From a virus (taxonomy: Duplodnaviria; Heunggongvirae; Uroviricota; Caudoviricetes), in IMG/VR virus record IMGVR_UViG_2778261418_000017: DNA of 4,384 bases; one strand, given 5' to 3'. Of this stretch, positions 173-4,246 are shown in pieces; the first letter of the stretch is position 1; every line of letters begins with the position of its first letter. The translations under genes were made by a program, and so were the position numbers. The notes under the pieces were generated by a model. That model worked only from the letters and a program-made list of their open reading frames with translations. It had not been told where the DNA came from and made no database searches.

Positions 173-538
173 TCACTCACTCTCAATTTTGTAAATCTTC
201 ACGCCCAGCCGCCCCCCAGGAACGCGCTGACCGCGCACAATATTGATTTCATCAAACTGCTCGTCGTCTATGAGAAGTCCGGCATGCGTCAGCGCATCCA
301 GTGGAGCTTTCAGGATATTGTCCAGGTCACGACGACGTTTATCCGGTGGCTCTGCAATAATTTTTATTGCCAGCCTTCCGGACAGGTTCAATTTCAGTCG
401 CTGCTGGCGAACAATGAGCGCCACATCACGGCGATAACGCTCACCGGCTTTTGATACAAAATATGTACTGCCACGACGTCGCCAGTAGGTGTTCACCGTC
501 GGCGGGTAAGGCAAAACAAATTCTATGCGTTCAGTCAT
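173..538 (-). CDS. rusA: RusA-family Holliday junction resolvase (crossover junction endodeoxyribonuclease), prophage-encoded
   Basis: 121-aa ORF. The translation (VNTYWRRRG...YRRDVALIV...RRRDLDNILKAPLDALTHAGLLIDDEQFDEINIVRGQ) matches the RusA family as I recall it, about 120 aa with a conserved acidic DxD/DD...E core. ATG at 538-536 directly abuts the TGA stop of the upstream gene (541-539). Confidence 0.8.
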   Translation of the reverse strand: MTERIEFVLPYPPTVNTYWRRRGSTYFVSKAGERYRRDVALIVRQQRLKLNLSGRLAIKIIAEPPDKRRRDLDNILKAPLDALTHAGLLIDDEQFDEINIVRGQRVPGGRLGVKIYKIESE

Positions 539-1597
539 TCATGCTTTCCACTTCAGGACACCCGAATTTCTCGCGTGCATTAAAAAACGAATCAGCAACA
601 ACAGCTGGCTGCCGTGTTTTTCTTCAAAATCTTTTACCCCGGCGTGCAGTTCGTTATGACATTTACGGCACAGCGGAATAACAAACAAATCGTCAGTCTT
701 TGTTCCCATCCCTCCCAGTCCATAGCCAATGATGTGATGCGGATCATCTGCCTGATTGCCACAAGTCATGCATTTCTGCGTTTTTACCCAGCGCGTGTAT
801 ACGGGCATCTCTTCCCGCTGTGGTTTCTGACGCTGGAGATACTGAGTCGGAGACTCCGGATCAACGGCAATGCTGACCACCGTCTTTTCCTGTGGTGGGT
901 TCTGTTGCTGGTGGACGTGAGGCGGTAACGCAATATTTTTTGTGCGCTGCTTCAGCATGCTGGTGGCGGTCGGTTCTCCCGGTATGATGTCGCTTTCGCG
1001 GTACACTGAGCGGATTTTTTCCGCACGTAACCCCAGAGAACGACGTAATACTACCTCCGGTAGTGCGTCCGCCACCTGATTGCAGACAGCCCACCAGGAT
1101 AATTCAGCCAGCGATAATTCCCGCTCCTGCGCGCCATTCATTACATGGCGTATGACGTCAATCATCCATGCTGACAAATTTTGGTGAGCAAGTTGCCCGA
1201 GTGATTCGGAGGTCTGGTCACGCAGCTGGTTGTCGCAGTGCCAGCACAACACCATTGCGCCGGTACCATATCGGTGAATAACGGTTTCGCTGTGATGATA
1301 ATCGCCGTGTGGCCACTGGCAGGATTTGACATGACGCAACAGCCAGTCAGACAGTGCCCCAGCACCACCAGCAGCACGAATCACCCGCTCATCGCTGAAA
1401 AATGGCAGTAATGATTTATCCTCCGCCAGCGGCTGGCGAACAGCAGGAACGACTCCGGACGGCAGACCGCGCATGCTTTTCGGTTCCGGCTCCACCAGAA
1501 CTCGAGGGTTATGAAATACCTGCATGGATTCACGGCCCGGTTTTAGCACCACCAGCCCAAGTTCCGGTACCGGAACAGGTCGAAGTAATACCCGCAC
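539..1597 (-). CDS. YdfU-like prophage protein (DUF968-type) with C-terminal HNH-like zinc-finger motif
   Basis: 352-aa ORF with a GTG start at 1597-1595, preceded by a strong Shine-Dalgarno (CTGGAGGTAAC-GTG on the minus strand). The C-terminus CMTCGNQADDPHHIIGYGLGG...LCRKCHNELH has the CxxC...HH...CxxCH layout of HNH-type nuclease zinc fingers. Size and position between a small protein and rusA/Q match Qin-prophage ydfU as I remember it. Confidence 0.65.
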   Translation of the reverse strand: MRVLLRPVPVPELGLVVLKPGRESMQVFHNPRVLVEPEPKSMRGLPSGVVPAVRQPLAEDKSLLPFFSDERVIRAAGGAGALSDWLLRHVKSCQWPHGDYHHSETVIHRYGTGAMVLCWHCDNQLRDQTSESLGQLAHQNLSAWMIDVIRHVMNGAQERELSLAELSWWAVCNQVADALPEVVLRRSLGLRAEKIRSVYRESDIIPGEPTATSMLKQRTKNIALPPHVHQQQNPPQEKTVVSIAVDPESPTQYLQRQKPQREEMPVYTRWVKTQKCMTCGNQADDPHHIIGYGLGGMGTKTDDLFVIPLCRKCHNELHAGVKDFEEKHGSQLLLLIRFLMHARNSGVLKWKA

Positions 1598-1950: not shown

Positions 1951-1976
1951 AAAAACAAAACCCGCCGTAGCGGGTA
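1951..1976 (-). terminator. Rho-independent terminator downstream of the HTH-ImmA gene
   Basis: On the minus strand the sequence reads ACCCGC-UACG-GCGGGU followed by UUUUGUUUUUU: a GC-rich 6-bp stem with a UACG tetraloop and a T-tract (plus coordinates 1961-1975 stem-loop, 1951-1960 tract). It lies immediately 3' of the stop at 1980-1982. Confidence 0.7.
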
Positions 1977-1979
1977 TGC

Positions 1980-3083
1980 TCAAACAATCTGAAAAATATT
2001 TCTTGGATTTGTAATAGGTCGATTGATGGAGAACAACTCACGAATTAAATCTTGACTCAAGCCAGTTTTCATAAGAATGCTTAACCAAGTTGCATCATCC
2101 AGCATGTCAATCGCTTCGGACAGCATACTTGGTTCTTCGGGGCGCAAAAGTTCATCACCAGGTTCAACTCTCGTGTACCCTCTAGAATTAAGATGCATAT
2201 AGCCAGTTCTTGCCTGTTCCTGGGTCAATAGTCCTAATGCACTGGCTCGATAAATACACATTTTAAGGCTAATTTTCCATCTAAGCTTAAATTCAACCAG
2301 AGCACTCCAATCGAATTGCTTACCTCGTATTCGTGGAAATTCTTTAATGAAAGATAGCCTAGGAACCAATAATGCGCTAGAAAAGTGATCAGCTTGTGAT
2401 TCCGTAAGTTTATCACCAGTAGTTATGCCCTCATGCATTACTAAATGCCCTAACTCATGACCTAAATCAGAGCGAAATCTACATATGCTTTTTTTTACAT
2501 TGTTCCTGATAATAACAGGCCTGTTATTGTGAACAGTGAATGCATCAACACGATCATCGACTCCCGTAACATGCGCAACGATTACCCCCAAACTCTCCGC
2601 CAATTTCACCATTGATGATATAGGGCCAAGACCTAGATTCCATGCACGGCGACAATCTTCTGCCACTCGCTCAATATCATTCGGGGTAAGTAATTCAGTT
2701 CCGGGGTGCTCTGGTATGTTGACATCAGGGAATTCGATTTCACCTTCAACAGCAGAAATTATAATATTAAGAATCTCAGCCCTGGCCAAGACACTATTAG
2801 TCAGCGTTTGAGTCCTGGACTTCTTACTCCGAAAATGGCAAACATCGCTTTCCAGAGCATATTTTCGCTCAGTAAATAGAAAATCGGACTTAATCATAAG
2901 AGCTGAGGCTATTAACTCCAAGCATCGCTCTGATGGCCTAAATCCCTTCTCCAATTTGCTAACGAATTGCTTTGTTTTGCCAATTTTTTCGGCCAACTCT
3001 TCACATGAAAGCCCAACAGCCATTCTTGCTAGTTTGAGCTTATCGCCTCGATACTCAGTGAAGTTATTCACCTGATGTTCCAT
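1980..3083 (-). CDS. Fusion protein: N-terminal XRE/Cro-C1-type helix-turn-helix DNA-binding domain plus ImmA/IrrE-family (COG2856, M78-like) zinc metallopeptidase domain with C-terminal extension
   Basis: 367-aa ORF. Residues about 14-70 (LKLARMAVGLSCEELAEKIGKTKQFVSKLEKGFRPSERCLELIASALMIKSDFL) follow the canonical XRE HTH pattern. Residues 209-213 are HELGH (plus 2445-2459), in the context SDLGHELGHLVMHEG typical of ImmA/IrrE peptidases. Shine-Dalgarno-like GAGCAG precedes the ATG at 3083-3081. AT-rich codon usage. Confidence 0.85.
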   Translation of the reverse strand: MEHQVNNFTEYRGDKLKLARMAVGLSCEELAEKIGKTKQFVSKLEKGFRPSERCLELIASALMIKSDFLFTERKYALESDVCHFRSKKSRTQTLTNSVLARAEILNIIISAVEGEIEFPDVNIPEHPGTELLTPNDIERVAEDCRRAWNLGLGPISSMVKLAESLGVIVAHVTGVDDRVDAFTVHNNRPVIIRNNVKKSICRFRSDLGHELGHLVMHEGITTGDKLTESQADHFSSALLVPRLSFIKEFPRIRGKQFDWSALVEFKLRWKISLKMCIYRASALGLLTQEQARTGYMHLNSRGYTRVEPGDELLRPEEPSMLSEAIDMLDDATWLSILMKTGLSQDLIRELFSINRPITNPRNIFQIV

Positions 3084-3714
3084 TACTGCTCACATCCAAA
3101 TTTTTATCCTTCGTACGCCGACGAAGAGACACCTTATTAATCTCCGCTTCGCCAGGGAGTGTGTTACCGTCAAGGGACATAAGTGGCATTGATGCTGTAG
3201 ATTGATGAGAAACCATACTAATCTGAGCACCATAGGTATTAAACCCAACAAGAGCCACCTCCCAACGAGGCAGTGTGGACTCTAATTCACCATCTCCCTC
3301 TTCGGATAAAAATGGCTCCGCTATGACTCGCCATGTAATATCTTGCTCAGCCTCAACATCACCAAACAATGAAAGCTGCTCATGCTCTACTTTATTTCGA
3401 CGCAGGCGATGTTTCTTTTTGGGGTTATTAATGCAATCTTTGGTAAATTGTAGCGGAACTTTATTTAAAGCAACTACATAGTCCAACCCCTTGGAAATCA
3501 TCTTAAGACCAGGAATTGCGCCTTCATTTTGAATAAGATGGTTTCTGACCCAATCATAAGCCCTTACACCTTCAGACCAGTTGCTGTCTAATACGTGCTT
3601 ATGATAGTACAACTGCTCAAGTACGTTAGCGATCTCCGCCAACAACTGGCGAACATTGCTTTCAGCAAGATAAGGTTGAAATTCCCAACAAGGAGCTAAC
3701 TGATTTTCATTCAT
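3064..3714 (-). CDS. Hypothetical protein, 216 aa, no recognisable family; first gene of the two-gene cassette
   Basis: Long uninterrupted ORF, antisense only to a short shadow ORF. ATG at 3714-3712, TAA at 3066-3064, overlapping the downstream HTH-ImmA start by 20 nt. Contains a basic stretch PKKKHRLRRNK (residues 98-108, plus 3391-3423) flanked by acidic segments. I recognise no catalytic motif. Confidence 0.7.
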   Translation of the reverse strand: MNENQLAPCWEFQPYLAESNVRQLLAEIANVLEQLYYHKHVLDSNWSEGVRAYDWVRNHLIQNEGAIPGLKMISKGLDYVVALNKVPLQFTKDCINNPKKKHRLRRNKVEHEQLSLFGDVEAEQDITWRVIAEPFLSEEGDGELESTLPRWEVALVGFNTYGAQISMVSHQSTASMPLMSLDGNTLPGEAEINKVSLRRRTKDKNLDVSSNGTSGE

Positions 3715-3744
3715 TTCAAGTTTCGCTTTTTTTAGAATTCGTAA

Positions 3745-3778
3745 ACCTTATATTTTCGCATTTTCCTGTTTTTGTCAA
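3745..3778 (-). promoter_or_regulatory. Putative sigma70 promoter for the two-gene cassette
   Basis: On the minus strand a perfect -35 TTGACA (plus 3773-3778) is followed by A/T-rich candidate -10 hexamers (AAATAT at 17-nt spacing, or TATAAG at 20 nt), about 40 nt upstream of the ATG at 3714. The -10 assignment is ambiguous. Confidence 0.4.
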
Positions 3779-3793
3779 CCAGACTAATGCATA

Positions 3794-3811
3794 AACCCGC
3801 CGAAGCGGGTT
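3794..3811 (-). terminator. GC-rich stem-loop (UUCG tetraloop) downstream of hok; probable terminator or 3' stabiliser
   Basis: Plus sequence aacccgc-cgaa-gcgggtt. On the minus strand this is AACCCGC-UUCG-GCGGGUU followed by UAUGCAUU, a moderately U-rich tail. It is nearly identical to the hairpin at 1961-1975. Confidence 0.5.
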
Positions 3812-3850: not shown

Positions 3851-3872
3851 GGCGAGGGATTTCTCCCTCGCC
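3851..3872 (-). other. Perfect 9-bp stem-loop immediately 3' of the hok stop (hok mRNA 3'-end structure)
   Basis: ggcgaggga-tttc-tccctcgcc is a perfect inverted repeat with a 4-nt loop, starting 8 nt after the hok stop codon. It has no T-tract, so it is more likely an mRNA 3' structural element than a terminator. Hok mRNAs are known to carry structured 3' ends. Confidence 0.5.
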
Positions 3873-3879
3873 TGGTCTC

Positions 3880-4035
3880 TTACTCCTCAGGTTCGTAAGC
3901 TGTGAAGACAGCGACCTCCGTCTGGCCGGTTCGGATTCGTACCTCGCAGAGGTCTTTCCTCGTTACCAGTGCCGTCACTATGACGGTTAAACAGATGACG
4001 ATAAGGGCGATTAACATCGCCTTTTGCTGCTTCAT
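3880..4035 (-). CDS. hokD: Hok/Gef-family small membrane toxin (type I toxin), HokD/RelF-like
   Basis: 51-aa translation MKQQKAMLIALIVICLTVIVTALVTRKDLCEVRIRTGQTEVAVFTAYEPEE matches E. coli HokD as I recall it: single transmembrane helix, conserved Cys, acidic tail. Strong Shine-Dalgarno AAGGAG lies 9 nt upstream of the ATG at 4035-4033. The ORF track shows an in-frame 19-codon upstream extension (ATG at 4092). Confidence 0.85.
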   Translation of the reverse strand: MKQQKAMLIALIVICLTVIVTALVTRKDLCEVRIRTGQTEVAVFTAYEPEE

Positions 4036-4156
4036 AGCCTGCTTCTCCTTGCCTTTCGGCACGTAAGAGGCTAACCTACATTTGTGAGACATAGATTGGG
4101 CCTCAGATTAATGTTAAGCGTCCTGCAAGACGCGTAATGTTAACTGGGGCTTTTCT

Positions 4157-4193
4157 CTATCTGCCTTTTGGTGTTCATGCCTGAGGCAGATAG
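4157..4193. promoter_or_regulatory. 9-bp perfect inverted repeat (ctatctgcc ... ggcagatag) in the hok upstream leader; candidate RNA structure or operator
   Basis: ctatctgcc at 4157-4165 is the exact reverse complement of ggcagatag at 4185-4193, with a 19-nt spacer. A second overlapping imperfect hairpin is tgaggc-agata-gcctca at 4182-4198. It sits where the hok mRNA 5' regulatory region would be. Confidence 0.3.
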
Positions 4194-4246
4194 CCTCAAG
4201 CACCCGCAGCAATTCTACTTAACTCTCCTTTTCCCGCAAACCGTTT

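Follow-up and report, generated by a model that had tools for sequence, protein, structure and literature searches.

RosmerTA is a widespread anti-phage toxin–antitoxin (TA) system whose member from E. coli OLC-716 has been validated in defence, its toxin being described as of 'unknown function' (Millman et al. 2022, bioRxiv 10.1101/2022.05.11.491447). In a Rosmer pair other than the one described below, a delta-rmrA form could not be transformed: the toxin RmrT is toxic, and RmrA neutralises it. The pneumococcal Rosmer toxin RipA (Spr1630) interacts with the sliding clamp DnaN, and mutations that suppress its toxicity fall in the clamp's hydrophobic pocket (Maziero et al. 2025, PMC12795458), while its partner RipB (Spr1629), which combines a helix-turn-helix (HTH) with an ImmA part, neutralises RipA in a ClpX-dependent manner (PMC12795458). 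Here, we analysed a stretch of 4,384 nucleotides (nt) of Caudoviricetes virus DNA (IMG/VR record IMGVR_UViG_2778261418_000017), the whole of which is called the window, and focused on its two-gene cassette rmrT-rmrA. We found that the first gene, very probably encoding an RmrT toxin of 216 amino acids (aa) as judged from profile matches, carries in a conserved loop a peptide with the exact consensus of bacterial clamp-binding motifs, and that peptides of this type recur in other Rosmer toxin families. The elements on which the argument rests are as follows.

3064..3714, minus strand: rmrT, predicted toxin gene with an ATG start, 216-aa product; PADLOC PDLC03929, phrog_5786
1980..3083, minus strand: rmrA, predicted antitoxin/repressor gene, 367-aa product with an N-terminal XRE-type HTH and a C-terminal ImmA/IrrE (M78) Zn-peptidase
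3064..3083, minus strand: 20 nt shared by the 3' end of rmrT and the start of rmrA, translational coupling; the identical overlap is annotated in RefSeq
2445..2459, minus strand: HELGH zinc-binding motif of RmrA (aa 209-213), an intact HExxH by sequence
3391..3423, minus strand: basic patch PKKKHRLRRNK of RmrT (aa 98-108), probably a flexible loop after strand 3
3364..3378, minus strand: Q113-L-S-L-F117 of RmrT, exact QL[S/D]LF consensus, predicted DnaN docking peptide
Within RmrT: peptide NKVEHEQLSLFGDVEAE, candidate DnaN-docking segment
3337..3360, minus strand: acidic run DVEAEQDI of RmrT (aa 119-126), after the QLSLF motif
3067..3201, minus strand: C-terminal tail of RmrT (aa 172-216), mostly without predicted secondary structure, with low predicted local distance difference test (pLDDT) scores, below 50 from aa 205

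Against PADLOC, the 216-aa protein matched the RmrT model PDLC03929 with E 3.5e-25, aa 7-206 lying on profile positions 5-192 of 198, and against PHROGs it matched phrog_5786 (function unknown) over its full length with E 4.8e-83. An earlier note, made from the letters of the window, had been unable to assign the protein to any family. This verdict does not hold, and it arose because Pfam and NCBIfam are silent on this target: scans of the protein with both returned no family, and a Pfam scan of all 53 aligned relatives gave scattered noise with no convincing match. The PDLC03929 model itself is matched by 53 of the 53 relatives, at best with E 3e-72. The partner protein matched the PADLOC RmrA model PDLC03943 with E 3.7e-105, and Pfam placed an HTH_3 domain at aa 16-62 (E 2.9e-8) and a Peptidase_M78 domain at aa 176-281 (E 3.8e-11). 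The features of RosmerTA that can be tested in silico are all present, namely a toxin-first pair, an HTH/M78 antitoxin with HExxH and a match to the curated RmrT profile. On this sequence evidence, we regard it as very probable that the pair is RosmerTA and that the 216-aa protein is its RmrT toxin.

The two genes lie on the same strand with rmrT first and rmrA second, the rmrT stop codon being placed 20 nt inside rmrA. In E. coli chromosomes, RefSeq labels the pair 'hypothetical protein' and 'helix-turn-helix domain-containing protein', and a sequence identical to the 216-aa protein is already public as 'hypothetical protein'. Much of what the earlier note had read from the letters was confirmed here. 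The open reading frame (ORF) at 3064-3714 contains PKKKHRLRRNK exactly where it had been placed, the protein is mildly acidic as a whole (pI 5.45; 30 D+E vs 23 K+R), and the gene is promoter-proximal and translationally linked to the HTH-ImmA gene, being the first of the pair with the 20-nt overlap. The proposal that it encodes the effector of the module also agrees with its PADLOC match, which predicts the toxin RmrT of RosmerTA.

In an exhaustive HMMER search, the wide family comprised 59 representative clusters with a common length of about 200 aa. Those with a named source are from Vibrio, Aeromonas, Photobacterium, Pseudomonas, Rhizobium/Sinorhizobium and Allosphingosinicella, and almost all carry the label 'hypothetical'; close relatives also occur in Klebsiella, Salmonella and Enterobacter. 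Homologues at 61-93% identity are restricted to Enterobacterales. Three relatives at 20-25% identity each lie directly upstream of a 366-372-aa HTH/M78 gene. Among the close homologues in databases, four (P0014, P0017, P0012 and P0013) have frameshifts or truncations within their last third, P0014 and P0017 diverging after about aa 158, which suggests from the sequences that the toxin is inactivated now and then in genomes.

The bacterial clamp-binding consensus is QL[S/D]LF, with a looser form QxxLF and a hexapeptide form QLxLxL, the critical residues being those at positions 1, 4 and 5; QLSLF is termed the 'full consensus', and among the hexapeptides QLSLPL is a tight variant (PMC12309361, PMC4549789). 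The window protein carries the full consensus five residues past the basic patch, in the local sequence E110-H-E-Q113-L-S-L-F117-G-D, which the earlier note had overlooked when it described a protein with no recognisable motif. QLSLF is invariant in the alignment of 14 close homologues. Among 47 non-redundant relatives, the five motif columns hold Q in 40, L in 20, S in 21, L in 35, and F in 15 or L in 8, position 5 being F/L in 23 of the 47 and hexapeptide forms making up most of the remainder. A penta- or hexapeptide of clamp-binding type was found in the loop of 34/47 relatives, compared with 1.8 ± 1.3 (maximum 8) in 2000 loop shuffles, and outside the loop the pattern occurred only 3 times in 8193 residues. 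The loop variants include QLSLF, QLTLF, QLPLF, QFSLF, QYELF, QMSLL, QLSLL, QLSLPL, QLSLDF and QLNLSF. This alternation between QxxLF and QLxLx[LF], in which the last hydrophobic residue is shifted by one, is typical of clamp ligands, and it would presumably not be tolerated by a packed helix.

The motif stands between two charged segments that are themselves conserved. The basic patch is the only strongly positive stretch of the protein (+6 per 15-aa scanning window), a weaker one lying at about aa 191-205 (up to +4). In the aligned segment, aa 98-109, the net charge is at least +2 in 72% of the 47 members, with the +7 of the window protein as the family maximum, and P98 is 82% conserved in the wide family. 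The patch that the earlier note pointed out is not a product of chance, and in the model it is a conserved element of a flexible loop. E110, just ahead of the motif, is 93% conserved across the wide family. Beyond the motif, the charge profile falls to -5 to -6, and in 85% of the family the segment aligned to this acidic run carries a net charge of -1 or below. Because patch, QLSLF and acidic flank are conserved together, the patch that was first noticed is half of a basic/motif/acidic loop.

An AlphaFold2 (AF2) model of RmrT shows a globular alpha/beta domain with the order alpha2-beta3-loop-beta3. The pLDDT is about 50 at residues 101-110 and about 50-53 over residues 101-120, with residues 108-115 drawn as a short helix and the motif internal to the chain. 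A profile search of PDB sequences returned nothing (best E 0.5), and Foldseek against the PDB gave no significant match. In the C-terminal tail, LRRR..K and GTSG are conserved within the close family, with invariant R198, R200, D207, G212 and T213 (aa 197-216, nt 3067-3126), and this tail may act as a degron or bind RmrA.

We then compared the window family with the validated system of OLC-716. There, RmrT has 239 aa and RmrA 370 aa, and, as in the window, the toxin comes first in the operon and the antitoxin joins an HTH to a Zn-peptidase. The two RmrA proteins are 29% identical (E 5e-35). The toxins show no pairwise sequence similarity and belong to different PADLOC models (PDLC03935 for OLC-716, PDLC03929 for the window; 239 vs 216 aa), whereas hhalign of the two family profiles gave 69.7% with E 4.2e-5 over 121 columns. 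In this register, patch falls on patch, the Q-L-x-L motif on the motif, and W128-R on the T-W strand. OLC-716 RmrT itself reads DDS-QLKLDL-DMPEGD, a hexapeptide form, with a weaker basic element. Eight plasmid-borne homologues, 22-42% identical to OLC-716 RmrT, each lie directly upstream of an XRE/ImmA gene (350-380 aa); they share P-x-x-K-x-x-K-G upstream of the motif, which aligns with the window patch, and their motif column reads QLDLF, QLSLF, QIDLF, QMYLF, QLELDL, QLFLPG, NYDLF and TVDMF.

The same layout was seen in RipA, the Rosmer toxin that is tied to the clamp by experiment. RipA orthologues from the S. mitis group, recovered via the published primer sequence, belong to PDLC03931 (E 1.3e-80) and not to PDLC03929. 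An S. mitis RipB orthologue and the window RmrA share 26% identity over the full length (E 6e-26). In the RipA family, Q141-M-E-L-[V/I/F] is invariant, is followed by acidic residues and is preceded by a K/R-rich loop, and the secondary-structure order of the AF2 model of RipA (predicted template modelling score 0.70) equals that of the window protein. The S. mitis orthologue also begins with M-L-N-Q-D-L-F-D-S-L, a second peptide resembling a clamp motif, in which [D/E]-[L/I]-F is family-conserved; neither this N-terminal peptide nor the internal one is mentioned in PMC12795458. In all three Rosmer toxin families, a basic element is followed by a clamp-motif-like peptide at 52-60% of the length. 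We tentatively suggest, with a confidence slightly nearer to doubt than to belief, that PDLC03929, PDLC03935 and PDLC03931 form one ancient superfamily with a degenerate alpha2-beta3-loop-beta3 domain resembling restriction endonucleases, in which the loop carries the basic element and the clamp motif. A comparison of the OLC-716 family with the RipA family detected no homology.

On balance, we lean towards the view, drawn from conservation of the loop, that RmrT is a soluble replication poison which docks on the sliding clamp and is restrained by RmrA. Docking on the clamp, what the patch contributes, what releases the toxin and how RmrA neutralises it are all inferred. RmrA would repress the operon, probably as an autorepressor, and/or neutralise RmrT. 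Once this control is lost or overridden, presumably on phage infection, free RmrT would put QLSLF into the hydrophobic cleft of DnaN and compete with DNA polymerase III and other clients of the clamp and displace them; the host, and any phage relying on the host clamp, would then stop replicating, leading to growth arrest or abortive infection. The basic patch might contact the DNA threaded through the loaded clamp, or otherwise strengthen docking, and patch and loop may also be the site at which RmrA or ClpXP acts. The earlier note had likewise suggested for the patch either a nucleic-acid-binding role or one as a protease recognition or cleavage region.

Several points weigh against a clamp poison. 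A regex-clean motif is missing in 13/47 relatives. The motif is internal and overlaps the 108-115 helix of the AF2 model, and it could be a structural or RmrA-binding lookalike of a clamp motif; the two AF2 models are of moderate confidence (pLDDT 71 and 64). The RipA paper maps the DnaN interaction to no motif (PMC12795458), and between RipA and the window family no homology was found with either the single sequence or the family profile (hhalign 0.3%). The link to the validated toxin is itself only probable, in that the window and OLC-716 families are probable remote homologues by profile. Rosmer toxins are, moreover, heterogeneous, as RmrT of Gordonia phage Kita, whose system protects against phage, depolarises membranes.

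The loop could instead serve RmrA. If so, the basic-E-QLSLF-acidic segment would be what RmrA recognises, as an interface or as an M78/ClpXP cleavage site, and the toxin would act on some target other than the clamp. As modelled, the loop is flexible and exposed like protease substrates, the metallopeptidase site of RmrA is intact, control of related Rosmer toxins needs ClpX or ClpP, and loop and RmrA co-occur in every family member examined. However, recognition by RmrA leaves unexplained both the exact clamp consensus with its penta- and hexapeptide variants and the binding of the DnaN pocket by a Rosmer toxin of the same loop layout. We consider it unlikely that RmrA recognition is the function of the loop, although this role and docking on the clamp are not mutually exclusive.

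RmrT could also be a DNA nuclease of the PD-(D/E)xK fold that is toxic through cleavage, in which case QLSLF would tether it to clamps at forks or be incidental. No conserved catalytic D...(D/E)-x-K of strands 2 and 3 was found in the family alignment or in per-column conservation, and we hold a nuclease to be quite unlikely.

A different question is whether the pair defends against phages at all, or is a plain addiction or prophage-maintenance TA, or a prophage switch like ImmR/ImmA. Vmi480/Vmi470 and RipA/RipB were first reported as TA systems without a defence phenotype, and RipA has a physiological role in competence. On the other hand, the pair has the architecture of RosmerTA, and protection against phages has been demonstrated for two RosmerTA systems; the validated OLC-716 toxin is probably remotely homologous to the window family; and the cassette occupies an exchangeable cargo slot of a prophage, with relatives adjoining restriction, Mokosh-type and other defence genes. 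Together these points make a role without defence improbable. Finally, a membrane-depolarising toxin like that of phage Kita, which together with RipA makes up the Rosmer toxins of characterised activity, is effectively refuted by hydropathy, since RmrT has no transmembrane segment (maximum 19-residue Kyte-Doolittle 0.95 vs a threshold of about 1.6; grand average of hydropathy -0.51) and its AF2 model is globular alpha/beta.

The cassette is bounded by two hairpins and preceded by sequences that may control it.

3747..3778, minus strand: candidate promoter found by eye, with a perfect -35 TTGACA (3778-3773) and weak -10 sequences AAATAT (3755-3750) and TATAAG (3752-3747)
3721-3747 and 3754-3780: two 27-nt direct repeats from a repeat search, 70% identical, 33-nt spacing
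1960..1975, minus strand: intrinsic-terminator-like hairpin with a T-run directly after rmrA, the 3' boundary of the cassette
3794..3811, minus strand: GC-rich hairpin AACCCGCTTCGGCGGGTT followed by T's between hokD and rmrT, the 5' boundary of the cassette

A consensus promoter scan called no promoter upstream of rmrT, and TTGACA stays a candidate only. The 27-nt repeats span the -35 and the leader, between the rmrT start codon and TTGACA, and on the coding strand both copies finish with GCGAAA; a possible role for them is that of operator for the HTH of RmrA. RmrA also matched the CapP and CapH models of PADLOC (capP E 1.9e-14, capH E 1.6e-5), which belong to the cyclic-oligonucleotide-based anti-phage signalling system (CBASS). 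In ImmR/ImmA of ICEBs1 and in CapH/CapP, the HTH and the M78 peptidase are separate proteins, whereas RmrA fuses both and its partner is a toxin, not an integrase or a CBASS operon. By analogy, this suggests that an HTH under protease control regulates the operon, a possibility that PMC10440598 brings up as well.

The GC content is about 0.41 in the cassette, compared with about 0.50-0.55 in the flanks. The window covers the nin region of an E. coli prophage of the Qin-like lambdoid kind, the cassette lying between hokD and the nin genes. On the minus strand, the order is hok/sok, the two-gene cassette, a small phrog_1212 gene, a DUF968/HNH (YdfU-like) gene and RusA, with the Q antiterminator just outside the window, past RusA. 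The neighbours are listed below.

3880-4205, minus strand: complete hok/sok type I TA, Pfam HOK_GEF E 3e-23, hokD in RefSeq
4030-4205: sok antisense RNA, Rfam RF01794, 121.7 bits
1599-1958, minus strand: mechanical ORF of 119 aa, of which phrog_1212 matches residues 54-119 only; the RefSeq gene here has 279 nt
539-1597, minus strand: DUF968/HNH-type gene (YdfU-like, phrog_96 'HNH endonuclease')
173-538, minus strand: RusA Holliday-junction resolvase gene, abutting the DUF968/HNH gene at 538/539

Two unrelated toxin systems thus adjoin in this prophage, with hok/sok directly upstream of the RosmerTA cassette. Just downstream of hok, positions 3851-3872 hold two perfectly inverted 9-nt arms (GGCGAGGGA / TCCCTCGCC) around a 4-nt loop, which probably form the 3' stem-loop of hok mRNA. 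The 119-aa ORF is probably over-extended, and a homologue of the phrog_1212 gene is labelled 'toxin to Rem' in one phage record. The DUF968/HNH and RusA genes are standard lambdoid nin-region content.

Among 5426 complete E. coli genomes, 237 (4.4%) carried the cassette, without exception in intact form, and 2 of the copies lay on plasmids. In phages, blastn gave matches in the cassette flanks only, and tblastn against 50,697 phage genomes gave no match. Escherichia phage vB_EcoS-689R5 (ON470583.1) keeps the flanks (region 2501-3231), and its slot holds a different hypothetical gene of 130 aa, which makes the hok-ydfU junction an exchangeable cargo ('moron') position. As a variable cargo site, this junction could be mined for further defence genes. 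Besides the restriction and Mokosh-type genes mentioned above, an integrase and an NA-iREase1 gene stand beside a window-family pair, a sister-family pair on a Mesorhizobium plasmid adjoins a RES-Xre TA and a restriction endonuclease, and another on a Methylocystis plasmid adjoins an N-6 DNA methylase. Such neighbourhoods are a typical defence-island or mobile-element context.

The conserved clamp peptide reduces the question of RmrT function to three residues, Q113, L116 and F117. If RmrT docks on DnaN, the single experimental precedent of RipA extends to Gram-negative prophage systems. If the superfamily holds as well, much RosmerTA immunity would be DnaN poisoning, the clamp would be a recurrent target of prophage abortive infection, and there would be a residue-level handle on a toxin mechanism that has been obscure since 2015/2022. 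The recurrence of the motif suggests a single mechanism for Rosmer toxins that look unrelated. Natural high-affinity clamp poisons are also of practical interest, since antibacterials can be directed at the sliding clamp. If the motif does not bind DnaN, the window protein is a routine member of a known defence family, of the sort that automatic annotation can recognise.

Two further pairs resemble that of the window. One is Vmi480/Vmi470, from MGIVmi1 of Vibrio mimicus, whose toxin is about 198 aa long, kills E. coli and is neutralised by Vmi470 (PLoS One 2015, PMC4671572); as in the window, a toxin without recognisable domain lies upstream of an HTH-Zn-peptidase antitoxin, here of 362 aa. 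The N-terminus of Vmi480, MTKKPEFY, resembles that of the relatives P0045 (MTKKPWEL) and P0053 (MTKKPSEY), and the PDLC03929 profile likewise has 198 positions; membership in the window family is a lead from a comparison of N-terminus and length only. The toxin of E101_02645/02644, an E. coli prophage pair, is related to Vmi480 and makes clpP essential (Rousset et al., bioRxiv 10.1101/2020.05.25.114553). The window protein is not identical with E101_02645, as it has W and not T at position 46, and the E101_02645 accession was not among the cluster members listed.

A toxin with the action proposed for RmrT, on the hydrophobic pocket of DnaN, is also known outside Rosmer. As summarised in PMC12795458, SocB of SocAB in Caulobacter crescentus blocks replication via the beta clamp pocket, and the same summary states that neither SocB and RipA nor their antitoxins are homologous; SocA, unlike RmrA, is not an HTH-peptidase. 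RipA/RipB, for its part, lies on Gram-positive chromosomes and has links to ClpX and competence. In the searchable literature, we found no description of a clamp motif in the window family or across Rosmer toxins, and only the RipA paper ties Rosmer to the clamp. Set beside these systems, the pair in the window is a new member of the known defence system RosmerTA, and what is new here, as read from sequence, is the conserved clamp-binding motif of its toxin and the recurrence of this motif across Rosmer toxin families.

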